Positions 1 through 46,528 of a DNA stretch of 64,000 nt are shown here, in pieces. Every line of letters starts with the position of its first letter. Position 1 is the stretch's first letter. Origin of the DNA: Escherichia phage vB_Eco4M-7; the sequence record MN176217, one strand, 5' to 3'. Under the pieces are notes generated by a model that saw only the letters and a program-made list of their open reading frames with translations, ran no database searches and was not told the origin of the DNA. A program made the position numbers and the translations under genes.

Positions 1-10
1 AGACTGCGAG

Positions 11-232
11 ATGATCGCCGCGATAGTAAGTCTTAACCATGACGGCTATGAAGGCCACTATGCGAGAGCAACCAACCTTCGGCTCAAGGTGCGCATCCAT
101 TTCAAGGTCGCAGGCGAGGACCGCACCGGACTCTCTAAGGAAGAGTTCAGCAGCATTGCCGAAGCAAAGGCATGGCTCAAGGCATTCTATAAGAACAACC
201 CTAAATTCTATCCAACTAAGGACGCATCATGA
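11..232 (+). CDS. hypothetical protein (may be 5'-truncated by window edge)
   Basis: ORF with protein-like composition; ATGA overlap with next ORF suggests translational coupling. Confidence 0.3.
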   Translation: MIAAIVSLNHDGYEGHYARATNLRLKVRIHFKVAGEDRTGLSKEEFSSIAEAKAWLKAFYKNNPKFYPTKDAS

Positions 233-417
233 CTAATAAAACACAGCTCATCAATTTTGAAGGCAAAGAATACGAAATAGACGCTCGTGCGCGATTCGTT
301 GCGCGCGATTCTAACGGAACCATCTGGGCGTATGAGGGTAAACCTGCATGGAACGATTGGCGCGGCCAGTGGGGGATATGCAATTGGCGATTCACTTTGG
401 TGCAAGCAAATTGGTGA
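229..417 (+). CDS. hypothetical small protein
   Basis: ORF 62 aa; start overlaps stop of upstream ORF. Confidence 0.3.
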   Translation: MTNKTQLINFEGKEYEIDARARFVARDSNGTIWAYEGKPAWNDWRGQWGICNWRFTLVQANW

Positions 418-424
418 TGGAAAG

Positions 425-721
425 ATGTTCGAAGAGAACAGACCAGCATCACGTGATTCATTAAAGGAAGTGGCAGAAATCAAAATCCAAGACCAAGCGC
501 CATCGACCGATAACCAATATGCAGTCGGGCAACGTGACATCGAGCAACTCGACGAGGGCGGCTATTATACGCGCCACATCTATGCCATGACGCATGAAGG
601 ACTTTACAGCAAGTCAGACATCGCCGCTGAACTGGCCCATCGTGACTTGCAAATTGACCTTCTCAAGATAGAAGTGCAAAACTTACGCAACACCCTTTTG
701 AATACTTGGAGCTTAAAATGA
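425..721 (+). CDS. hypothetical protein
   Basis: Internal ATG at 425 (MFEENRPAS...) of track ORF 287..721, just after stop of 229..417. Confidence 0.3.
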   Translation: MFEENRPASRDSLKEVAEIKIQDQAPSTDNQYAVGQRDIEQLDEGGYYTRHIYAMTHEGLYSKSDIAAELAHRDLQIDLLKIEVQNLRNTLLNTWSLK

Positions 722-1137
722 CGCAACGTTATGATGTTGATTATTGCACGCAGCACGCTTGCACCTGCGAAGTTGTAAAGGATGATGAAGGCGGCTACGT
801 TGAATATGAGGACTACGCCGCGCTGGAAGCGAAATACAGTGAAGCGCAACGCGAGTTGGTTGCATTACGCTCACAGGTCCGTGATGCGTCGGTGCTCGTT
901 AAGCAGTTGCATGACGTTGTTGCTACTATAGGCGTGGATGATGCGCCGAAGGAGGAAGCGTGGACCGTTTGGGAATCCAACGCAACCAATCCCGTCCCAG
1001 GACGTATGGTGATGTATATGTTGCGCGACGGCTATGAATCTAAATCACCTGTGCTTTCCGATGGGTTGCGTTGGGAGATGATGGGACTGCCACACGGAAC
1101 GGACATCGTCGCTTATCGGGTTGTTAAGGAGGGGTGA
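718..1137 (+). CDS. hypothetical protein
   Basis: ATG at 718 overlaps upstream stop (ATGA); ORF MTQRYDVDY... Confidence 0.4.
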   Translation: MTQRYDVDYCTQHACTCEVVKDDEGGYVEYEDYAALEAKYSEAQRELVALRSQVRDASVLVKQLHDVVATIGVDDAPKEEAWTVWESNATNPVPGRMVMYMLRDGYESKSPVLSDGLRWEMMGLPHGTDIVAYRVVKEG

Positions 1138-1670
1138 TGGGTAACGATGCAGGATGGGGCAAGCCGCGATACTCAAAACTTGCCCACTACTTTGACGACG
1201 GCGAGCAAATCAGCTTGTGCGGTAAATTCAGCAAAGGCAATACAGAGTTGACCGACGCTCAAGAAATGGAATCAAGTTTAACAATTGGTGATTGTTCTAA
1301 ATGTCGCAAGGCATTATATGAGTTATTAACTCTAAGGGGATTGGAAGCGGCAAAATCAAGGGATGAATGGGTCATTAACGTCTGTGAAGGGAATCCAGAA
1401 TTAATGGATGAATGGCTAAAGACGGATGCTGTTAATGCCATTTTCAAAAGGCATTATAAAACTTGTATGCGTTACAAGATGAATGATGATATTATTTTTA
1501 TGGTATTATCTTATTCAAGGAGCACAATGGACGTCAAAAAGCTTCGACAATATCGCCACAAGGTAATGTGTGAATTACGCCGTTTAGGAGTGATTGTGGA
1601 TAATAATGTTATTAAAACGGAGTTAAAGAAGCGTGATAAAAGGAATGGTGACTGGAAGGTCAGCGGATAA
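1137..1670 (+). CDS. hypothetical protein
   Basis: ATG 1137 preceded by AAGGAGG at 1126-1132; 177 aa. Confidence 0.4.
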   Translation: MGNDAGWGKPRYSKLAHYFDDGEQISLCGKFSKGNTELTDAQEMESSLTIGDCSKCRKALYELLTLRGLEAAKSRDEWVINVCEGNPELMDEWLKTDAVNAIFKRHYKTCMRYKMNDDIIFMVLSYSRSTMDVKKLRQYRHKVMCELRRLGVIVDNNVIKTELKKRDKRNGDWKVSG

Positions 1671-2023
1671 AGAACATTGATTCGTGTGTTTTGAAGAATG
1701 GAATGTGTACAATTGGTCGCTTTACGCGGCCTTTTTGTCGTTTGGGTCGTGTTTTGTGATAGAATAATTATGACGAGGTGTTTTATTTATTAATTGTGCG
1801 GAAATATTTAGAAATATATACAAACAGGATTGTTAATATTTTAATAGTGTATGGCTATTGGTCCGTGGTGTTTGTTAGATTCTATCTATGGATTGGATTT
1901 TCTTGGGTCGTGGAACGTGGTTTTGAACACATTTGATACGCCTAAAATACGGTTAAAAATTAAGCGTATCATGGCTGCAGGCCGCGCCGTTCCTGGATTC
2001 CTATTTTCAAAAGTGGTACACCC

Positions 2024-2294
2024 TTACGTCATGATACGTCATGGTTTTCTATCCGTAAGAGTGTACAGCCCTTGCCGCGCCTGGCTTGTACATTAATCTT
2101 ACGGATGATACGGATAAAACTGAGCATCGTTATATATAGAATTCGAAAAATTAATTAACTCCATTTTAAAAACATTTATATTAATTTTTTTCATATCCTC
2201 ATACTTATGTTAATTTATATATTTAACGTATCATCCGTAAGATATAAGTAAAAACAAAGACTTGCGGCAATACGGATGATACGTCATGATACGC
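2024..2294. repeat. Palindromic GGATGATACG repeat cassette, copy 1: inverted arms CTTACGGATGATACGG (2098-2113) and CGTATCATCCGTAAG (2227-2241) flank a 113-bp AT-rich core; extra half-sites at 2024-2044 and 2271-2294
   Basis: Read directly; same architecture and a conserved core (TATATAGAATTCGAAAAATTAATTA) recur at 18117-18396. Confidence 0.7.
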
Positions 2295-2458
2295 TTCAAC
2301 CAGCCAGCAGCGGCTAAGTCATTGATTTGCATAACAAGCGGCGAAAGGGATGGATTTCTTTTATACGTATCAAACAGTACACCACGCACCACGGTCCGCA
2401 ATCCTATTTGCACTATGATTTGTGTACGTTTATAGCCATAATGAACATCAATCTGCAC

Positions 2459-2488
2459 TTGAATATAATGTCCATCCATTGTATAATT
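2459..2488 (+). promoter_or_regulatory. sigma70-like promoter candidate (-35 TTGAAT, 18-bp spacer, -10 TATAAT)
   Basis: Hexamers read from sequence upstream of ORF 2508. Confidence 0.35.
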
Positions 2489-2507
2489 CACACTATTAAT
2501 TTGCACT

Positions 2508-2996
2508 ATGGGATTTTGCACTATGAGTCAAGATTATGTAGCGATGCCTGAAGACTTTGAAGACCCGCGATTCGCAGAGCACAATCAGGCTTTATTCGAT
2601 GAGTTCATTGACCTTGTTATTCAGGGCCATGACATGCGCGCAGCTTTTGCACTAGTATTTGGAATGGAAGTTGCAACGGATAACTACACTGGCCAGCGAA
2701 TCCTTTGCACGCAACGCAATCCATACTACAAGATGCGCTTCAAAAAGCGTATGGAAGAGATGCCACTCAAGGATTTGTGGAGCGTAAAAGGTGCAATTCA
2801 CAATTTGGTCAAGCTTGTGCGTGATCCAGAAGTCGCAGCGTCAGCCAAGCTTAATGCTATTCGTGAACTGAATATCATCTACGACATCACGATGATTGAT
2901 GAAAACGGCAACAGCAAGATGGGCCGTTCCATGGACGATTTCTACAAGGATTTTGGAGAGGCGGCCAAAGAAGGCGAGCAATTCTCCCGCCACTAG
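2508..2996 (+). CDS. hypothetical early protein
   Basis: ORF 162 aa with acidic N-terminus; alternative start at 2523. Confidence 0.45.
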   Translation: MGFCTMSQDYVAMPEDFEDPRFAEHNQALFDEFIDLVIQGHDMRAAFALVFGMEVATDNYTGQRILCTQRNPYYKMRFKKRMEEMPLKDLWSVKGAIHNLVKLVRDPEVAASAKLNAIRELNIIYDITMIDENGNSKMGRSMDDFYKDFGEAAKEGEQFSRH

Positions 2997-3395
2997 CCAA
3001 TTTGCACTATAAAACGGCCCTAGAACACATTGTCTCCAATTCTAGGGCCATCGGTAATACGACGGGGAAGGTTGCAACCGTAAACGCGTTAGAAAGTGTA
3101 TTATTATAAGTCATCTTTTAGTCACCTTACGTAACAATTTACGACCTTCAACCGTCCAATCGAACGACTCCACCAGCAGATTCGCACTATAACCTAAGAC
3201 CACTCGACCCTTCTCGTTATCGACCCGCCAGCAAGTCTCGAATAGCATTCGATTTGCACTATTAACTATTGCTGCGACTCGCGTAGGATAAGCGCAATTT
3301 GCACTATGGTCGTAAAGGGATAAGGTGCGACCACTTCCGATGGACAACGTAGCGATGAGAATGAGCGTATTCATAAGCCACCAATTTGCACTATG

Positions 3396-3419
3396 AAAAG
3401 CGACCCCGAAGGGCCGCCA
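3396..3419 (-). terminator. Rho-independent terminator candidate (7-bp stem, UUCG tetraloop, U tract) on minus strand
   Basis: Minus-strand RNA GCGGCCC-UUCG-GGGUCGC-UUUU immediately downstream of stop of 3425..4051. Confidence 0.45.
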
Positions 3420-3424
3420 TTCGA

Positions 3425-4051
3425 TTAGATAATCTGGAAGGTGTAGGACTTGTTGCCGAACTCGAAGTTCAAGCGTCCAGCTTCTTTAAGCTTCATGCGG
3501 AAGCGAATATGCTTGCTATCCGGCAAGCCCAGCGCGGCGAACGCTACGCGGACCGATTTGAACTCGCCTACACCCTCGACCATAACGCCGTTACGGGTGA
3601 GACGCTTTTGCGCCACTTCTTTATTATCCCAACTTTTTGCAATACCTTTGCTATTCGAACGGCGATGGGAAGGAATTGCAATTTTATTCGCTCCAACCGG
3701 AGCATCATTAAGGCCGCTTTTAACGAAGGCTTCATATTCTTCGTCGGTCATCGCGTCGAGTTCTTCCTGGGTCGGCTCGGCCTTTTTAACGACCGCGCGC
3801 GCCTTATGCGTTTTTACATCACTGGACACTTCCTCGCGAGACTTTGCGTCTGGGATGGGCGATTCGTTGGACGGATCATCGAGCGCGTTTAAGGATTCGA
3901 TTAACGCGATTACGCGAGTCTCAGCGGTGCGACGGTCCGCGAATTTTTTAATCGGCTTTGAGCCTGAATTTTCGTTATAGAATGCAACGAGGTCGGCGGT
4001 CTTGGTTGCGATTACGTCGCCGCTGGTGGAGAAACGATTCAAACTGGCCAT
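3425..4051 (-). CDS. hypothetical protein
   Basis: 208-aa minus-strand ORF with natural composition and a terminator after its stop; overlapping + strand ORFs are R/F-rich and look spurious. Confidence 0.4.
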   Translation of the reverse strand: MASLNRFSTSGDVIATKTADLVAFYNENSGSKPIKKFADRRTAETRVIALIESLNALDDPSNESPIPDAKSREEVSSDVKTHKARAVVKKAEPTQEELDAMTDEEYEAFVKSGLNDAPVGANKIAIPSHRRSNSKGIAKSWDNKEVAQKRLTRNGVMVEGVGEFKSVRVAFAALGLPDSKHIRFRMKLKEAGRLNFEFGNKSYTFQII

Positions 4052-4192
4052 AATAAACTCCTAGTTTGGGAGCGGTGTCAACGACCTATTCGTTAACTCA
4101 TCCGTCCCGATATGAGTACATTATAATATAGTGTAGAAAAAAAGTAAAGCACTTTTTCGATAAAAATGAGATAAATTATTTTATCTTTTTTC

Positions 4193-4220
4193 TTTACTTC
4201 TTCGTACACTCGCGTATACT
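4193..4220 (+). promoter_or_regulatory. Promoter-like element copy A (-35 TTTACT, 16-bp spacer, -10 TATACT) within conserved block CTTTACTTCTTCGTACACT
   Basis: Near-identical block repeated at 4589-4619. Confidence 0.4.
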
Positions 4221-4276
4221 TGTTTATATCGAGACGGGCGATGGCCCTTCCTTCTAATAGCATCGGGAGTTTTATT

Positions 4277-4579
4277 ATGACCACTTTAATCTCTTCTATC
4301 CTTACTTACGACGAAGACCGTTTAACCGTTCGCTCTCTTATCGCCGCCGTTAACGCGGAACTAGAATCCACCATTATTAAGGTCCGCGCGGTCGCTTTCG
4401 TCGGCCTTTCCTTCGACGATATTAAGTACGCCGAACGTAGCGTCATCCGCTTCGCGAAGACCGATGACGAAGCCGTTACCCTTATCGAGACGGTTACGCC
4501 GCGCGGCGAAGCGTTAATTATCGTCGAGTATATCGACGTAGAAGGCGATAAGGCTTATAAATATTTTATCGCAAAATAA
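4277..4579 (+). CDS. hypothetical small acidic protein
   Basis: ATG 4277 (MTTLISS...), 100 aa. Confidence 0.4.
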   Translation: MTTLISSILTYDEDRLTVRSLIAAVNAELESTIIKVRAVAFVGLSFDDIKYAERSVIRFAKTDDEAVTLIETVTPRGEALIIVEYIDVEGDKAYKYFIAK

Positions 4580-4590
4580 CGAAAAAGTGC

Positions 4591-4619
4591 TTTACTTCTT
4601 CGTACACTAAGACTATAAT
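4591..4619 (+). promoter_or_regulatory. Promoter-like element copy B (-35 TTTACT, 17-bp spacer, -10 TATAAT), followed by 8-bp stem hairpin GGTAGCGA-ATAGG-TCGCTACC in the leader (4641-4661)
   Basis: Read directly. Confidence 0.4.
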
Positions 4620-4686
4620 GTTTTATATCGAGAGGGGATGAGGTAGCGAATAGGTCGCTACCCTCCCGACTAACTAGGAGAATATT

Positions 4687-4977
4687 ATGATTACTTTAGC
4701 CGCTATCCGCGACGCTCGCGTCGAGACTTCCGAAAATTCCAACGTATTTGGCGAAAAGCTTAAAAACGTCTATCTTTTTAACGTAGACGCAACTATCGAG
4801 CCTATTTATGAGCCGATCAACTTCCTCGACCTTTACAAGTATCGCGACGAGGACATCGTATCATCCCGCGTAACGATCAACGGCTTCGTCTATACGATTA
4901 CCGAAATCGGCGGCGAATATCTCGCGGTCCCGCAACTCGGCGGCGAAGTAACTTTCTTTAAAATCGTAAGCCTGTAA
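4687..4977 (+). CDS. hypothetical small protein
   Basis: ORF 96 aa with AGGAG RBS at 4676-4680. Confidence 0.4.
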   Translation: MITLAAIRDARVETSENSNVFGEKLKNVYLFNVDATIEPIYEPINFLDLYKYRDEDIVSSRVTINGFVYTITEIGGEYLAVPQLGGEVTFFKIVSL

Positions 4978-4988
4978 GGAGAAGGAAG

Positions 4989-5198
4989 ATGACTAATATG
5001 AATAATTCTCTTAACGCGCGCGCCCATCGCACCGCCGTAATCGATATGTTCCGCGAGCTTAAGGAATTATGCGATAATATGAACGCGATGTTATCCATCG
5101 GCGGCTGGGGATACGAAGAAGAGGTTAAATACGCGGTTATGCGTCGCCGTCGCGATAACGTCCTTGGACAAATTAAACGCGCCGGATTATTCCTTTAA
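4989..5198 (+). CDS. hypothetical small protein
   Basis: ORF 69 aa; RBS GGAGAAGGAAG upstream. Confidence 0.4.
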   Translation: MTNMNNSLNARAHRTAVIDMFRELKELCDNMNAMLSIGGWGYEEEVKYAVMRRRRDNVLGQIKRAGLFL

Positions 5199-5224
5199 TT
5201 ATAATTACCCACCGTTACTAATAG

Positions 5225-5250
5225 GCCGCGCTTAGTCGCGGCTTTTCTTC
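5225..5250 (+). terminator. Rho-independent terminator (GCCGCG-CTTAGT-CGCGGC then TTTTCTTC)
   Basis: Perfect 6-bp GC stem plus T tract right after the + strand early gene block. Confidence 0.55.
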
Positions 5251-5370
5251 GTCCCTATCTCGATGCGCTTCTCCGCGAAAACTCCTTTATCCTTCCCTTC
5301 GTCGTCGCATAATCTTCGTCGAGATGCGCCTTAGTTCGCATAACAGGTATTACGTTAAATGGAGAACATC

Positions 5371-5442
5371 GCGTAAGTCGTTGTTTTATATAGACACATA
5401 TATCGGACCGTTAGGGCGGGTCGCGTAAGTCGTTGTTTTATA
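5371..5442. repeat. Direct repeat CGCGTAAGTCGTTGTTTTATA x2 (5371-5391 and 5422-5442)
   Basis: Read directly in 650-bp non-coding region. Confidence 0.6.
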
Positions 5443-5568
5443 AAGGCGCAAAACTTTCCCTTCGTTCCGAACTAAAACGAGAAATATGCCGACCCTTCGC
5501 CCGAAAATAGTACGCATGCGAAATTACATGCATCTCGAATAATCCCCACCGATACTATCCTACACGCA

Positions 5569-5622
5569 ATCATTCGCTTTCGAATCATTATGCTTCATAT
5601 TATCATGCGTCGAATCATTCGC
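5569..5622. repeat. Direct repeat AATCATTCGCTTTCGAAT x2 (5569-5586 and 5605-5622)
   Basis: Read directly. Confidence 0.6.
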
Positions 5623-5903
5623 TTTCGAATTGTAACGCTGGAAACTGTAACGGCGATTGATTATTGCGTTCGTGTGGTTTTTATGGCATGGGTCTTTTGG
5701 TGCGTTTTGCTACTTGATGGAATTTGCGGTACACTAATCAAAATACGACACATTTGGTCCACTAACTTTTCAAAGAAAAAGTCCTAGACAGTACCGTACT
5801 ATTTTGTACCCACAGGAAATTTGCAGTACACTCCTGCGCAGCAGGCAAAATAAAGGGCCGCACTAAGCGACCCACGATTCACGGTTAAAGCAACATCCAC
5901 CCA

Positions 5904-6368
5904 CTATTCAATCTTATGGGCATCACCAAAACCATCAGCAATCTGGCTGATCAACGACTCAATGGACACAGTTTTACCAATTGATCGAGCGGTAATAGCA
6001 AGCATATTATCAATCAAGCCACGATTGACTTCACATGTTCCAGGCTTTAACTCATCTTCAGAACAACCAAAAAGCTGGTCGCGCAGACTTTCAAGAGAAC
6101 GCTCAATATTTTCCAACTTCTCTTCTAAATCGGATTGGCGACGTAAAACCCATGTCAAGTCACGGTTGCCGACTTCCAATCCATCAGAATAGCAAGGTGG
6201 AGCGTCAATTTTGATGCTGGAACTAAAAGCAGTGCCGCTGCCTTTAGTATAAGTATGGCTCATAGAATCATTTTGGCTCATAGAATCATTTTTATTTGAC
6301 ATATCATTACCTTTAATATTTGGGTGATTAACAATAACTATAATAAAGCCGCATAGCGCGCCATTCAA
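5904..6368 (-). CDS. hypothetical protein with internal tandem 18-bp duplication
   Basis: ORF 154 aa; tandem GGCTCATAGAATCATTTT x2 at 6257-6292. Confidence 0.35.
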   Translation of the reverse strand: MNGALCGFIIVIVNHPNIKGNDMSNKNDSMSQNDSMSHTYTKGSGTAFSSSIKIDAPPCYSDGLEVGNRDLTWVLRRQSDLEEKLENIERSLESLRDQLFGCSEDELKPGTCEVNRGLIDNMLAITARSIGKTVSIESLISQIADGFGDAHKIE

Positions 6369-6399
6369 ATCGATTTATTAATTGTGACGATTGGATTCA

Positions 6400-6627
6400 T
6401 CAATCGATACAAATTGTGCAGGGTCGCCGGATACAGTTGCGCCGATGATACCCATCTGAGAGAAAAAATTCTGAATAAACTTCCTTCCAGTACTTACGCG
6501 CTGCTTTCTGGGCTTGACCTTTGCGCTTGAAGCTTTTACCTTGAAATATGAAGCGGTCTTTTGGTGCGTAATACTCCACCACACCTTCCAGCCATTGTAA
6601 GAACGCTACTGATTCATTTTTATTCAT
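6400..6627 (-). CDS. hypothetical small basic protein
   Basis: ORF 75 aa. Confidence 0.3.
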   Translation of the reverse strand: MNKNESVAFLQWLEGVVEYYAPKDRFIFQGKSFKRKGQAQKAARKYWKEVYSEFFLSDGYHRRNCIRRPCTICID

Positions 6628-6634
6628 ATTAACC

Positions 6635-7030
6635 TCAATATTTTAATAAGAAAGCACCCAACCAACTTTCCTCAACCTCACGGCCAGTAGCCACACGGTC
6701 GGTCTTGGCTATGGGTCTGTATTCGCCACAGGGCAATCCGTCTTGTAGTTGTGTACTATTGCCAATTCTCACCAGAACCTTTCCATCAGGGTCGATATAA
6801 GCGCGACAACCCATGATTTCGAGTCGTTGTAGACACTGGCGAATCGTTTTCAGCTTCTCACCGGACCGGATAGAGCGCGGTCGCGACCGCTGACCGTTTT
6901 TATTCACTGTACGCTTGGCGACCGGAATATCATTGGTGCGTTGCGGCTTGGGTCGGTAATAAGCCTCTTCGCCAGGAGTCGCACCTGGCGTCAGTTCGCG
7001 CTTGAGCGCCTTTTCAATATCAATGATCAT
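6635..7030 (-). CDS. hypothetical protein
   Basis: ORF 131 aa. Confidence 0.35.
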   Translation of the reverse strand: MIIDIEKALKRELTPGATPGEEAYYRPKPQRTNDIPVAKRTVNKNGQRSRPRSIRSGEKLKTIRQCLQRLEIMGCRAYIDPDGKVLVRIGNSTQLQDGLPCGEYRPIAKTDRVATGREVEESWLGAFLLKY

Positions 7031-7124
7031 GATTTATGCCGCAGCAGCGTGGATGATTGCGTAAACGATTCCAAACAGGGCGACAACACAAACCGTGCCC
7101 CAAAATGCAAAGCGTCGTGCCTCT

Positions 7125-7412
7125 TTATCCATTAGACCCTTCTCCGCTGTTAATGTTGTCTAGAATCAAGGTTGGAATTTCATCTTGAGTTCTGACTTTG
7201 TAATGCGAAGGCATTTTGCTTTCTAACAATGCCTGTTCGGCTTCTCCCTTTGTCTCAAAGAGCGGGATGCACCAATCAACTGCATCGCCATGTTCATCGC
7301 CTGTAACGGCTTTCAAAAAGACAAGGCGTTTGTCTGCAGGGTCGATTCCGCAAATTAAGTATTTTGGAAGAGCCTTTGCTTTCTGAGCCTTATCAATATC
7401 TTCAAATTTCAT
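7125..7412 (-). CDS. hypothetical protein
   Basis: ORF starting MKFEDIDKAQ... Confidence 0.35.
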   Translation of the reverse strand: MKFEDIDKAQKAKALPKYLICGIDPADKRLVFLKAVTGDEHGDAVDWCIPLFETKGEAEQALLESKMPSHYKVRTQDEIPTLILDNINSGEGSNG

Positions 7413-7493
7413 AAAACACCTCACTTGTTAACGTATAATGAGTATAACTTAATTGCGCATAAAGTAAAGGCGCTTTTCAGCGCCTTGAGTGAA

Positions 7494-9833
7494 TTATTTT
7501 GCTGCTTTCAGCGCGGCTATCTCTGCCTCGAGAACCTCGATGCGGTCCATCAATGCAAGAATAGCCTCGTGGTGCAGTGCTGCTGCTACGCCTGGTGTGT
7601 TGACAGATTTTATGTTATCCAACGTCGAACCGTCGCGCAGAGTAACAGGCGATGACTGTGTTTCAGATACTGCTTCAGGAAAGTCTTTCTCTACATCCTG
7701 GGCGATGAAGCCAAAACCGACGGAGCCATTAGTTTCCAGAGTCCATGCCACGCCTCTAATATTGCGCATCTTGACGAGTGGATCAGTGATCCGCTCAATG
7801 TTACTTTTAATACGTTCATCAGATATACTCCGCCACTCCTGACACCTTGCTATTCCATCGGAGCCAAAAAGATAAGAGGCCGCGCCGCCTGTCCCGCTGT
7901 AAACGTTCAATTGAGCGCGGTCCAGCGCGGTCGTGCTACTCCTTATGCCTCCGAGAATCCAGCTTCCGCTGTACCAGTCACCGCTGATTGAGTTTACAAA
8001 ATTTCCTTCTGGAACGTTGGCATAGTTTTGAATCCTTATGGCGTTGTTTTCTGCAGCAGCAACGCCTACTGAATTAACTGGGGATGCAACAAGGTCTTTA
8101 GACCGGATATATGCATCAACAAATATTGTTCCATCAGGGCGCAGAGTTCCAATCTGGGATGTGGAATTTGGCAACACCAATTTGCCATCTTGGTTAAATG
8201 CCCACTCTTGCACCCCATTAGATATCACCGCACCTTGTTCAGATGTTAATCCATCAATCTTGCCGTATGCCTGCAAGAATGCTTGATACGCGATGTTCGT
8301 GCCAATCTTATATTCAGATTTTACACTACCGCCTCTGACAAGCGTTCCGGTTGCAGGTTTTACTGCGTCACCATTAATGACGCTCCAAGTCGTATTCGCG
8401 GCAACAAATCCACCAGATGCACGAATCACCCAAACACCTTCAAAGGCATTAGGTCGAATTTCATTCGCATCATCACGTCCATAAGCGCCATTTGACAGCG
8501 ATGCATCAAAGTTCACGTCTACATAATAACCATCAGAAGTCCCGCGCATACTTCCAGCAGTTTTTACTATTTTTGGCTCAAATGCGCCATATCCTCGCGT
8601 CACGCCAGAGGTGCCGAATGCAGTAAGCATAGACACATTAGGTGAACCAGAAATATTTGGTGCAGCACTCTGCCTGACACGACCGTCGTTTGAAGATACA
8701 CCTCCATCACCACGCCCGAATAAACCTGGGATTGAGCCTGCTTGAACGCCGTTGCGGTCTGGAACTCGAAATGTAGTTGTGCCGTTGCCTAATGAATACT
8801 TGCCGCGTTTCGCTGGGTCCGCTAACCAATCTGCATCAGCAATAGGCGAAAGCATTTGCGCATATGCCCAAAGTTCAGGCCAATCTGCACGATTGAGTAA
8901 TTGGCCGTCAGAAACGACTTCGTAAGGCTGGATGTAAGCACGACTGTCTCGCAAGTGGAAGTCGCCGACGCCATAGTTCATAACACCGTTCATGCTTGGG
9001 CCAACGGTGCCTGTGTTCACTAAGTTCTCAACCCAACGCTTGGTTGCAGCATCATAATCGTTTACCGGATCACCAGCAAGCGGAGTCGGCCCTTGTGGAC
9101 GAATATTCAACCAAGCTTGAGCATTGTCTGCTGATCCTGTGCCGCCCATTGAAGTTGGAACGATGCTTTGATCAGCGACTTGTCCGAATCCAAAAGCAGA
9201 CTTCATCCCCTGTATGGTAGTTTGACCTGTGCCGCCATTTGCGACTGGTATAACGCTTTGCGTGTTATAAACTTGAACCCAATCAGACCAGGATGATATA
9301 TCGACGCTATACAACCTTTGGTATACTGTGTTTATCCAGTAAGGCGTGTATCTCTGCACACAGCTGTTCGTTGAAACTCCCGTTTGTAAAACTTCAAGTA
9401 TTCCAGCTTGTTCTACAGGATAGTTGAGTGCTGTTGACGCCCCAGCATTAGTCGGTTGGTAATATTGACCGAACCAGCTTCCGTTCAGCGCGTTAAGGTT
9501 TATGCCATTAGGAATTACGCCAAAGTTTCGGACAGTACCCGTCAAAGTCGCGGCAGTAGTTCGAATGGAAAGCATATCACCAGCCGCCCAAGCACGCGCT
9601 GCAGTACCTTCCTGTGCACGCTGCACGGTCAGGACGTTTCCAACAACGGCTGTTACTGTGACGATTTCGAATTGGAGGCCTGTTGCGGCGTCAACGATTG
9701 TCGCCACTACACGCTCGTTTGCGCCCAAGGTCGGAAAGCCCGACCCTGAGCGAATTGTGATTGTGGTGTCTGAAGTCGTCGTTGGCTGAGCGAGCGCGAC
9801 CTCAAAGTTGTTTTTGAATATTAGCCTTGGCAT
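7494..9833 (-). CDS. Tail fibre / tailspike protein with C-terminal intramolecular chaperone (peptidase S74-like) domain
   Basis: 779 aa; G/T/S/N-rich beta-type body; C-terminal SDERIKSNIE motif typical of the auto-cleaving chaperone, followed by a coiled-coil tail. Confidence 0.65.
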   Translation of the reverse strand: MPRLIFKNNFEVALAQPTTTSDTTITIRSGSGFPTLGANERVVATIVDAATGLQFEIVTVTAVVGNVLTVQRAQEGTAARAWAAGDMLSIRTTAATLTGTVRNFGVIPNGINLNALNGSWFGQYYQPTNAGASTALNYPVEQAGILEVLQTGVSTNSCVQRYTPYWINTVYQRLYSVDISSWSDWVQVYNTQSVIPVANGGTGQTTIQGMKSAFGFGQVADQSIVPTSMGGTGSADNAQAWLNIRPQGPTPLAGDPVNDYDAATKRWVENLVNTGTVGPSMNGVMNYGVGDFHLRDSRAYIQPYEVVSDGQLLNRADWPELWAYAQMLSPIADADWLADPAKRGKYSLGNGTTTFRVPDRNGVQAGSIPGLFGRGDGGVSSNDGRVRQSAAPNISGSPNVSMLTAFGTSGVTRGYGAFEPKIVKTAGSMRGTSDGYYVDVNFDASLSNGAYGRDDANEIRPNAFEGVWVIRASGGFVAANTTWSVINGDAVKPATGTLVRGGSVKSEYKIGTNIAYQAFLQAYGKIDGLTSEQGAVISNGVQEWAFNQDGKLVLPNSTSQIGTLRPDGTIFVDAYIRSKDLVASPVNSVGVAAAENNAIRIQNYANVPEGNFVNSISGDWYSGSWILGGIRSSTTALDRAQLNVYSGTGGAASYLFGSDGIARCQEWRSISDERIKSNIERITDPLVKMRNIRGVAWTLETNGSVGFGFIAQDVEKDFPEAVSETQSSPVTLRDGSTLDNIKSVNTPGVAAALHHEAILALMDRIEVLEAEIAALKAAK

Positions 9834-45004: not shown

Positions 45005-46528
45005 TTAATTCATCTTTTTGCCGTCGAGGATGTGATCAGCAAGCATAGACTTCATACTCAATGAACGCTGAATTTCTTCGTCGATGGTATCAACCCCAAT
45101 AAAATCAACATACAACACGCTTGATTTGGTGCCGATGCGGTGATTTCGGTCTTCGGATTGCTTGCGCAACTCGTTGTCATAGTTGCAAGAATAATAGATT
45201 GCCAAGTCGGCGGCGGTAAGCGTGATTCCGATGCCTGCCGCTGCAGCGTGACAAACTAAGACTTGCGTTCCACCGTTCTCAACTGTGTTCTTTTGGAAGT
45301 CATCAATCAAGAACTCGCGCTGCTCTTTTGATGTTTCACCGTTGTACACACCAGTGACCACGCCTTCAGACTCAAGCCAATCCTTAATCTGGTTCATCTC
45401 TTCCTTAAAGATGGCCCAAACAATGAATTTGCGCTCTGGGTCATCTTCCAACACCCCTTCCACATAGTCCTTAAAGGCCGTGAATCGTGGGTTGTCTTCC
45501 ATGTACACCATCTCATCATACACCTTAACAAAGCCTGATGTCACCTGCTTCATCTTAGTGCGAGATGCGATCATCTCAAACTTAACGTTTTCTTCTTCGC
45601 CTTTATACTCCATCAGATAGTTGTACTCATTCTTGAGTTCATCATAGACATCGCGCTGCTTAGGCGACAACTCGAAGTCGATAAACTTGTACACCTTCTC
45701 TGGAAGGTCCGGCAGGTATTCCGCTTTTGTCGCGCGGAAATAGTGCGGCTCCATCAGCCGGATAAGCTTGTCAAGGTTTTTGTACATCGGTCGGCCAAAC
45801 TGGTCTTTGCGCGGCACTTGCGGAATGCCATAACCGTTGCCGCCGATTTTCTTGAGAATGGCCTGCATCTCTGGGTCGTGCGCTTCAAGTAGTACTGTGA
45901 ATTCAGAGTTAAATGCGCGGAACGATTTGGTGCCAAGCAAACCTGCTTCAAGGAAGTGATACTGCATGTAAATATCAGCAGGCGAGCGCGGCAGCGGCGT
46001 ACCGGAAAGGATTCGACGGGCCTTTGCCAGCCGTCCCAATTCCACAACCTTGATGGAGCGTTTGGCTGTGTTATTTTTGATACGCGTCGATTCATCAATG
46101 ATCATCAAACAGCGGTATTTCTTCAAGACCGACTCAATGTGTTGATAACCGACTGGTGTGTTGACGGTGTCAATGTTGAATGAGAAGATGCGCGCAGGCA
46201 CTTCGCCTTCAGGGTAGTGATCAGCAAACATCTTCTCCCAAAGCGCCTTGCCCTTTTTAGTCTTCATCTTGTCATTGCCGCGCCAGTAATGCCCAATCCA
46301 CTTGATGGAAAGGTGTTCTGGTGCTTCACGACGAATCCAGTTTGAGTGTACACCGTTAGGAGCGATGACAACCATGGCATCAAATGCGCCAGCGGCGAAG
46401 TGTTTTTCAAACTCTGCCAAAGCGGTCCAGGTTTTGCCAAGACCCTGCTCCATAAAATAAGCAAAGTATTTTCTGCGGCCTGCTTTATCAAGCGCCAATA
46501 ATTGGTGGCGCATTCCTTGTGTTTTCAT
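45005..46528 (-). CDS. SNF2-family (DEAD/DEAH) helicase
   Basis: Motif I GLGKT, motif II IIDESTRIKN, C-terminal helicase domain. Confidence 0.7.
   Translation of the reverse strand: MKTQGMRHQLLALDKAGRRKYFAYFMEQGLGKTWTALAEFEKHFAAGAFDAMVVIAPNGVHSNWIRREAPEHLSIKWIGHYWRGNDKMKTKKGKALWEKMFADHYPEGEVPARIFSFNIDTVNTPVGYQHIESVLKKYRCLMIIDESTRIKNNTAKRSIKVVELGRLAKARRILSGTPLPRSPADIYMQYHFLEAGLLGTKSFRAFNSEFTVLLEAHDPEMQAILKKIGGNGYGIPQVPRKDQFGRPMYKNLDKLIRLMEPHYFRATKAEYLPDLPEKVYKFIDFELSPKQRDVYDELKNEYNYLMEYKGEEENVKFEMIASRTKMKQVTSGFVKVYDEMVYMEDNPRFTAFKDYVEGVLEDDPERKFIVWAIFKEEMNQIKDWLESEGVVTGVYNGETSKEQREFLIDDFQKNTVENGGTQVLVCHAAAAGIGITLTAADLAIYYSCNYDNELRKQSEDRNHRIGTKSSVLYVDFIGVDTIDEEIQRSLSMKSMLADHILDGKKMN

Follow-up and report, generated by a model that had tools for sequence, protein, structure and literature searches.

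The 64,000-nucleotide stretch of Escherichia phage vB_Eco4M-7 analysed here (sequence record MN176217), referred to as the window, carries an array of a short DNA word, ATTTGCACTAT, at 2406-3394, at and within the gene for the small terminase subunit (TerS) and near the left end of the genome. The window belongs to a Wifcevirus myovirus of E. coli; over the array region, it is 99.9% identical to vB_Eco4M-7n, and 27 other records are 91-98% identical to this region. The copies of the word and the genes in or beside which they lie are as follows (window positions).

2406-2416, plus strand: motif copy ATTTGCACTAT, lineage-specific and exact in the window only
2499-2509, plus strand: motif copy ATTTGCACTAT, first of a tandem pair, between a sigma-70-like -10 element and the TerS start
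2514-2524, plus strand: motif copy TTTTGCACTAT, second of the tandem pair; the TerS start codon ATG at 2523 consists of its last bases and the following G
2523-2996, plus strand: TerS gene, 157 amino acids
2647-2655, plus strand: core-only ninth copy TTGCACTAG, within the TerS coding sequence
3000-3010, plus strand: motif copy immediately 3' of the TerS stop codon
3111-3374, minus strand: 87-amino-acid gene with a signal-peptide-like N terminus, homologue of gp2 of Pantoea phage Kyle
3180-3190, plus strand: motif copy ATTCGCACTAT in the 87-amino-acid gene, read Y-S-A-N; begins 2 nt past the Chi complement CCACCAGC
3252-3262, plus strand: motif copy in the 87-amino-acid gene, read N-S-A-N; site common to Kyle, Pantoea phage PA1 and the metagenomic relative L176
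3297-3307, plus strand: motif copy in the 87-amino-acid gene, read H-S-A-N; site common to PA1
3384-3394, plus strand: motif copy in the non-coding gap between the terminator of the 208-amino-acid gene and the start of the 87-amino-acid gene
3425-4051, minus strand: 208-amino-acid gene (phrog_4730), which adjoins TerS in Kylevirus and Pbunavirus too

We searched both strands of the 64 kb for ATTTGCACTAT with at most one mismatch. Eight copies were detected, all on the plus strand and all within 2406-3394, and no site was detected outside this interval on either strand. In 100 dinucleotide-preserving shuffles, the mean was 1.68 copies and the maximum was 5, and none of the 100 reached 8. Similarly, the 8-nt core T[TC]GCACTA was found nine times on the plus strand within 2408-3386 and once on the minus strand, at 45556, with about 2 copies expected per strand. 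The first-pass annotation, made from the letters alone, had described at least seven co-oriented copies, and the whole-window scan and the shuffles confirm this as an enrichment; six of its copy coordinates were correct and two were off by one (3001 for 3000, and 3296 for 3297). The informative part of the word is about 11-12 nt, i.e. (A/G)ATTTGCACTAT, often with G as the next base. The start coordinates of all eight 11-mers in the window are 0 mod 3, i.e. in the TerS frame; this is not general, as the pair spacing is 14 nt in relatives and frames are mixed in Kyle. Rfam and tRNA scans of 1500-6500 and 1-8000 gave no matches.

Within Wifcevirus, seven copies are kept at the same position in all relatives examined, and the copy at 2406 has one mismatch in Bas98 and reads ATTCAGCACTAT in most relatives. 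The 2499 copy of the tandem pair is present in all Wifcevirus examined, with a pair spacing of 15 nt in the window and 14 nt in most relatives. Moreover, the 208-amino-acid gene of most Wifcevirus relatives contains two to three extra co-oriented copies. The mid-part of this gene in the window is unlike that of the WFC-type relatives, in which the extra copies sit. Among 19 distinct Wifcevirus sequences, 1 of 42 columns was variable in the non-coding copies as compared to 79 of 463 in the surrounding non-coding DNA (Fisher p=0.008). In the same 19 sequences, the third codon positions inside the motif showed no significant extra conservation over other third positions (3/12 versus 28/76 variable).

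tblastn searches with TerS returned 358 phage records, mostly from Pbunavirus but also from Pantoea, Serratia, Xanthomonas, Salmonella and other phages, and a collection scan with a three-sequence TerS alignment identified L176. The word is carried by four lineages, i.e. Wifcevirus, Kyle, PA1 and L176, and TerS of the latter three are 41-51% identical to that of the window. In Kyle (TerS 43% identical), the core occurs nine times, always on the TerS strand; the copies start within the 3' half of TerS and continue as far as the end of the convergent counterpart of the 208-amino-acid gene, and the rest of the Kyle genome (about 66 kb) contains no core copy on either strand. Thus, in both genera for which whole or nearly whole genomes were examined, the array is limited to the terminal repeat (nine copies versus none in Kyle, and nine versus one in the window). 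In PA1, whose TerS is 60% identical to that of Kyle, ten core copies, or 13 under relaxed matching, are located in the same place and are all co-oriented, and L176 (TerS 51% identical) has five core and four relaxed copies, also co-oriented. Co-orientation with TerS is strict in all four lineages, with 9 to 13/13 copies on one strand.

By blastn, Wifcevirus gave only two short matches to the Pantoea phages and L176, both in the 208-amino-acid gene, and the array region is unalignable as DNA. Some copy positions are nevertheless orthologous across genera and others are lineage-specific: the NSAN site is common to all four lineages, and two more SAN sites are common to Wifcevirus and PA1. The final base of the word is T in Wifcevirus and mostly C in Kyle. 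Pairs of copies spaced by 14-15 bp recur at three unrelated places, i.e. 2499/2514 in the window, about 3681/3695 in relatives, and 2820/2835 in L176. The loci examined of Pbunavirus, Serratia, Salmonella, Xanthomonas and other metagenomic relatives do not contain the word. The four lineages that carry it group together as a single clade in a TerS tree, and Serratia phage MyoSmar is the sister of this clade; the word is restricted to one monophyletic TerS subclade, and it is unchanged there despite the TerS identities of 41-51%. A scan of IMG/VR for pairs of TTGCACTA returned 120 loci; the other apparent arrays among these were rejected as unrelated, consisting of low-GC repetitive coding sequence with fibre-like Ser/Ala repeats.

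Some copies of the word are non-coding, and others fall within three genes on both strands, where they are read in several frames. In the 87-amino-acid gene, the copies at 3180, 3252 and 3297 all read (Y/N/H)-Ser-Ala-Asn in one frame; in Kyle, at least four frame and strand combinations are used (LSAK, NSAN and LVQ in gp2, VVQ twice in gp3, and two frames of TerS). AGT accounts for 9% of the Ser codons in the long open reading frames (ORFs) of the window phage. Across the small minus-strand proteins of the four lineages, however, all 14 of the 14 Ser-Ala-Asn/Lys tripeptides are encoded by xxT-AGT-GCR-AAW. Because the rare AGT is used at every one of these sites, the (H/N/Y)-S-A-N peptide repeat is the result of the DNA word and not its cause; taken together with the non-coding and other-frame copies, this led us to reject a peptide repeat as the origin of the word. 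On this sequence evidence, the word is selected as DNA, overriding codon choice. In total, the conservation across genera, the non-coding footprint and the override of codon choice strongly support that the word is a functional cis-acting DNA element and neither a product of chance nor a by-product of coding.

The array lies in the terminal repeat of the phage, in which the following features surround it.

2086-2253, no strand assigned: inverted repeat, arms 2086-2112 and 2227-2253 with TACGGATGATACG, bracketing the AT-rich left terminus
2164-5778, no strand assigned: direct terminal repeat of about 3.6 kb, with the left physical end of the genome at 2164
2442-2487, plus strand: two overlapping sigma-70-like promoters, TGAACA-16-TATAAT and TTGAAT-17-TATAAT, upstream of TerS and nearly invariant among relatives
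3016-3049, minus strand: hairpin terminator with a 10-bp stem, followed by GTTTTATAGTGCAAAT on the minus strand
3400-3417, minus strand: hairpin terminator after the 208-amino-acid gene, followed by TTTTCATAGTGCAAAT on the minus strand

In the GenBank record of phage Mansfield, which begins at the equivalent of window 2164, a direct terminal repeat is annotated at bases 1-3673 on the basis of a PhageTerm prediction; the WFC record begins at the same base, with the repeat present at both ends, and the repeat described by Korf et al. is about 3.7 kb long. On the right, the boundary of the repeat corresponds to window 5697 (Mansfield, PhageTerm) or 5778 (end of the WFC record). Accordingly, the array is located 243-1221 bp inside the left genome end and within the terminal repeat, with the first conserved copy at 336 bp and the last at 1221 bp from 2164. 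In total, the words are real and non-random, locked to one strand, confined to the repeat, conserved across genera as DNA, and positioned beside and within TerS near the genome end. The first-pass annotation had missed the decisive context, i.e. the location in the terminal repeat near the genome end, beside the terminase gene and among the Chi sites described below.

That annotation had listed iterons of a replication origin among the candidate roles. We consider it very unlikely that the array represents origin iterons or, similar to phage T5, an injection-stop region or a cluster of binding sites for host DnaA in the terminal repeat. The direct repeats are close to the very AT-rich stretch at 2120-2230, TTTGCAC, the inner 7 nt of the word, match the central positions of the DnaA box TTWTNCACA, and octamer iterons with irregular spacing are known in phage P4; moreover, T5-like phages have clusters of repeats and DnaA boxes in their long terminal repeats (bioRxiv 10.1101/866236). 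However, the AT-rich stretch is the genome terminus itself, and no initiator gene adjoins the array, its neighbours being TerS, the 87-amino-acid gene for a secreted-type protein and the 208-amino-acid gene. Nor do the copies show the 17-22-bp unit and the periodic spacing expected of iterons: with a unit of about 11 nt, they are irregularly spaced by 15-486 bp. As a DnaA box, ATTTGCACT was rejected, since both of its outer bases are wrong, leaving matches at 7 of 9 positions, and the most strongly conserved bases, the invariant CTA, fall outside the box. Finally, an injection stop would be expected at the inner boundary of the repeat, whereas the array is at its left.

The first-pass annotation had regarded the ORFs of the region as weak, and this was not upheld. 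Counting variable columns at the first, second and third codon positions in 13 Wifcevirus genomes, we obtained 5/2/46 for TerS, 4/5/27 for the 87-amino-acid ORF and 15/19/98 for the 208-amino-acid gene; TerS and the 87-amino-acid ORF both evolve as coding sequence. TerS is annotated as such in Mansfield and by phmmer matches PDB 7UXE over 145 residues (E=2.2e-34), i.e. the decameric TerS of Pseudomonas phage E217, the gene for which is located far from TerL (review). The 87-amino-acid ORF is intact in 13/13 Wifcevirus genomes and, judged by its substitution pattern, is a real gene under purifying selection. It is not annotated in several records; its product has conserved cysteines, and homologues are present in Kyle (gp2), PA1 and L176. 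The 208-amino-acid protein has a distant counterpart (20% identity) in Xanthomonas phage FoX7. It consists of two folded domains joined by a disordered charged linker, its C-terminal motif FKSVRxAFxALGLPDSKHIRFRM is nearly invariant, and its gene has 80-88% DNA identity to Pantoea phages over short stretches. The gene annotated as WFC_00111 (315 nt; window 4132-4446, minus strand) contains an in-frame stop in the window and may be a pseudogene or reflect a strain difference.

Among the encoded proteins, the 208-amino-acid protein or a 69-amino-acid "transcriptional regulator" (4989-5198) could be the reader, coating the left repeat as an operator or a roadblock and thereby regulating or silencing the convergent TerS and early operons; we regard such a reader as quite improbable. 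An operator, which had also been suggested in the first-pass annotation, is possible for one pair only: the -10 elements of the TerS promoters are at 2482-2487, and the copies at 2499 and 2514 are between them and the start codon. However, this position is not conserved in the Pantoea phages.

The word could also be a phage-specific promoter element, for which the first-pass annotation had drawn an analogy to middle-promoter boxes, giving rise to rightward transcripts, including antisense RNAs against the 87- and 208-amino-acid genes. All copies point in the same direction, and 5 of the 8 are followed by G, giving ATG; as the first-pass annotation had pointed out, two copies end in start ATGs, that at 2499 in the ATG at 2508 and that at 2514 in the ATG at 2523, which is the annotated TerS start. 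The factor-dependent late promoter of T4 is also compact. Nevertheless, a promoter role is highly unlikely: the copies at 3180, 3252 and 3297 are inside a real gene on the opposite strand and those at 3000 and 3384 are in its flanking intergenic DNA, such that 5 of the 8 copies have no co-oriented gene downstream. The latter two copies are also located just past the T-tracts of the two minus-strand terminator hairpins (3016-3049 and 3400-3417, respectively). Moreover, no -35 or -10 element or other partner hexamer is present at a fixed distance, most Kyle copies end in C in place of the final T, the other roughly 60 kb of genes lack the word, and no phage RNA polymerase or sigma factor has been reported for the window phage. 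Inspecting the flanks by eye, we rejected sigma-70, sigma-S, sigma-54, extended -10 and T4 MotA-type readings, as there was no consistent partner element and the final T is not kept in Kyle. By eye, there was also no convincing match to an EcoKI site, the RfaH ops element or the P1 parS box A (ATTTCAC).

The sequence CCACCAGC on the plus strand, next to the copy at 3180, is the complement of E. coli Chi, GCTGGTGG, and two sites of this kind adjoin copies of the word.

2990-2997, minus strand: Chi-like site GCTAGTGG with one mismatch, ending 2 nt before the motif copy at 3000
3170-3177, minus strand: Chi site GCTGGTGG, 2 nt from the copy at 3180 and kept in all Wifcevirus loci checked

Wifcevirus has one conserved exact Chi and four sites with one mismatch in 2164-4200. 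In Kyle, nine Chi sites are located in the first 2 kb of the repeat (255-1972 of locus L047), out of 13 genome-wide on that strand and with about one expected per strand; PA1 and L176 have seven each (3861-5433 of locus L169 and 1625-3322, respectively), and the Serratia MyoSmar group has four (locus L043, TerS +652 to +992). Judged by the published rule for Chi orientation (PMC12315714), every clustered Chi is oriented for RecBCD activity on entry at the TerS-proximal end, which is the left genome end in the window. In several cases, words are within 1-10 nt of Chi. Clustering of Chi sites at genome termini is already known from P1 and from LLS, a lambdoid phage (Genome Res 2025, PMC12315714), and we found no description of terminal Chi clusters for the phage genera studied here. 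We conclude that the Chi clusters of these genera are a fresh instance of a known strategy and that TTYGCACTA is a separate element sharing their territory and polarity. The word is not itself Chi, as it reads TAGTGCRAA and not GCTGGTGG on the relevant strand, and genuine Chi sites occur as distinct elements interleaved among its copies. In the Pbunavirus loci, GCTGGCGC, a candidate Chi of Pseudomonas, showed no clustering near TerS.

These observations bear on the main rival to the explanation that we favour, i.e. that 5'-TAGTGCRAA-3' on the minus strand is read at the left end by a factor of the host or the phage, either a helicase-nuclease or one acting in end protection or recombination. 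Acting with Chi, it would limit degradation of the infecting linear DNA and steer the repeat into RecA-mediated recombination, i.e. circularisation, concatemer formation or recombination-dependent replication. The word is Chi-like in being short, asymmetric, co-oriented to one end, irregularly spaced, multicopy and present in any frame, with positions that partly turn over; in all four lineages, it occupies the same roughly 1.2-kb territory in the same orientation as the Chi clusters; and the identity of its core among phages whose proteins differ greatly is in keeping with a conserved host reader. Terminal Chi clustering is, moreover, the established strategy of P1 and LLS. On the other hand, the Serratia relative MyoSmar has a Chi cluster but no word, the adjacency events are few and one word-Chi junction is a single orthologous site inside TerS, and the recurrent 14-15-bp pairs are unexpected for the signal of a translocase. 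Furthermore, we know of no second Chi-like octamer in enterobacteria, which also counts against this explanation, and of no enzyme that reads TAGTGCRAA. Altogether, we consider this explanation unlikely. It is rather less probable that TAGTGCRAA, on the strand whose 3' end forms the left genome end, represents a novel, second Chi-type control sequence that depends on orientation. A helicase-nuclease or an end-binding factor, of the host or the phage, would read it during processing of the DNA end, and phages would stack it with Chi in terminal repeats to survive attack on their ends and to trigger repeat-mediated recombination.

Repeats other than the word are present around the genome ends. 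A second family, TACGGATGATACG(T), occurs in both orientations at 1934-2299 around the left terminus (e.g. at 2100-2112 and 2271-2283). The inverted repeat at 2086-2253 belongs to this separate, lineage-specific family and is a candidate signal for cutting by the terminase. At the corresponding place, further TerS lineages carry distinct repeats of their own, i.e. GAACTTGCGG five times in locus L039 and TCGCGGCA three to four times in Pbunavirus, and the terminus-proximal repeats of PCSE1 and locus L045 are ATATAACG and CGTTATAT; these are likewise candidate signals for terminase cutting or recognition. In MyoSmar (locus L015, 3525-3645), three copies of AAAAAATAAGCATGCTTT, with a palindromic core, are present shortly downstream of TerS, and in PCSE1 (locus L017, 360-720), GATATAACGG is present upstream of TerS, three times on the plus strand and four times on the minus strand.

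A conserved element marks the right repeat boundary, i.e. AATTTGCRGTACACTAATCA at window 5721-5740 and CAATTTCACAGTACACTAATCA at about 3625-3650 of the Kyle locus L047. Its first 12 nt are similar to the array word (AATTTGCAGTAC versus AATTTGCACTAT), and a partial second copy is found at window 5818-5832. The near-copy of the word at 5818, AATTTGCAGTA, is part of this different element. Towards the right part of the terminal repeat, there are a 43-nt direct repeat present twice and containing ATCATTCGCTTTCGAAT, plus a 30-nt unit, TCGCGTAAGTCGTTGTTTTATA, also present twice (5552-5639 and 5369-5450, respectively). An identical 19-nt segment, CTTTACTTCTTCGTACACT, at 4192-4210 and 4590-4608 and promoter-like TTTACT-17-TATAAT sites at 4120-4148 (minus strand) and 4591-4619 (plus strand) are arranged divergently, with inverted repeats at 4139-4162 and 4577-4600; these are probably strong early promoters of the genes in the terminal repeat.

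The explanation that we tentatively favour, at somewhat less than even probability, is that the array is a dispersed recognition region of the cosB/pac type for TerS, used in packaging. TerS as the reader and packaging as the purpose are what we infer from its position and distribution. TerS decamers would bind (A/G)ATTYGCACTA(T/C) words via their helix-turn-helix domains, either as single words or as 14-15-bp tandem pairs, in which neighbouring TerS subunits could be engaged. Binding would load the large terminase on concatemeric DNA in a defined direction, and the large terminase would then cut at the AT-rich boundary a few hundred bp leftward, where separate, lineage-specific inverted repeats are present. 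Autoregulation could also result from the pair located between the TerS promoter and start codon.

In the phages lambda, SPP1, P22 and P1, the terminase recognition sites are beside or inside the TerS gene and near the cut site. TerS recognition is suggested because the array likewise brackets TerS near the cut site, because the word is limited to one TerS subclade, because the copy number of 8-13 is of the order of the ten helix-turn-helix domains in an E217-type decamer, and because the recurrent 14-15-bp pairs suit neighbouring subunits of a ring; this spacing suggests binding by adjacent subunits of an oligomer. No recognition site is known for the E217-type TerS family, and the role is therefore unoccupied (review).

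Several observations weigh against recognition by TerS. The array is spread over 1-1.8 kb with irregular gaps of 45-486 bp, whereas known cosB and pac sites are far more compact (100-200 bp). No comparable array is present downstream of the homologous TerS in the Pbunavirus, Serratia, Salmonella and Xanthomonas relatives examined, and the lineage-specific repeats upstream, near the terminus, in relatives lacking the word look more like classical terminase sites. Moreover, the 8-nt core is identical across TerS that are only about 42% identical and in which the putative recognition helices are not obviously conserved, whereas phage-encoded readers usually drift along with their sites. As the array is interleaved with a Chi cluster, closeness to the genome end and not to TerS may be what matters. 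Finally, E217 TerS, the solved homologue, had no appreciable DNA binding in vitro (review).

Genome recognition and cutting are poorly understood in phages with long direct terminal repeats. The array provides a concrete candidate site, in an E. coli phage, for the TerS family of the E217/PB1-like phages, which are widely used in Pseudomonas phage therapy, and of their E. coli relatives. If, instead, the word acts with Chi, it would be a new oriented DNA signal governing the fate of incoming phage DNA ends. Either way, the sequences clearly show a DNA word taking precedence over codon choice in several phage genes. vB_Eco4M-7 can already be rebuilt from PCR fragments (PMC11074155), and the array region calls for caution when phages are recoded or engineered for phage-based diagnostics. 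We found no description of the word in the literature on Wifcevirus, vB_Eco4M-7, WFC/WFH, Mansfield or BASEL phages.

Among known systems, cosB of lambda, with the sites R3, R2 and R1 for the lambda TerS protein gpNu1, resembles the array in that several short asymmetric copies are located just inside the genome end and by the TerS gene; the cosB sites give packaging its direction. However, cosB comprises three sites and an IHF site in about 120 bp of non-coding DNA, whereas the array has 8-13 copies over 1-1.8 kb, partly in three genes; lambda has cohesive ends in place of long direct terminal repeats, and TerS binding is only a candidate function for the array. P1 pac, with seven TGATCA/G hexamers, and SPP1 pacL/pacR are also multiple short direct repeats in or by the TerS gene, and these boxes are recognised by the small terminase. 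Unlike the array, they are compact (about 160-270 bp) and flank the site of cleavage; the array, in turn, is located 0.3-1.2 kb to the right of the cut site, which has separate repeats. In T7, SRL and SRR are short co-oriented repeats just inside the terminal repetition that have long been suspected to function in concatemer processing or packaging; they differ from the array in sequence and unit and are non-coding, and T7 TerS (gp18) is unrelated.

The left terminal repeat of T5 (10.1101/866236) provides another parallel, as conserved arrays of short repeats of unproven function are present in the long direct repeat of a virulent coliphage. The T5 repeats, i.e. the injection-stop region, DRD repeats and DnaA boxes, occupy a 1.6-kb untranslated region at the inner end and include palindromes and inverted repeats, whereas the array consists of a single word in one orientation, is partly in genes and is in the outer, left part of the repeat. 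Finally, the Chi sites of P1 are also concentrated in or near the terminal redundancy, and the terminal Chi clusters of P1 and LLS (PMC12315714) are similar to the word in being oriented octamers at one end, frame-independent, multicopy and active from that end only; the word differs in reading TAGTGCRAA and in being confined to two related phage genera. In total, we conclude that the word belongs with the terminus-associated recognition repeats or oriented words of phages and that it is unusual among these in its dispersion, its entry into three genes and its interleaving with Chi.

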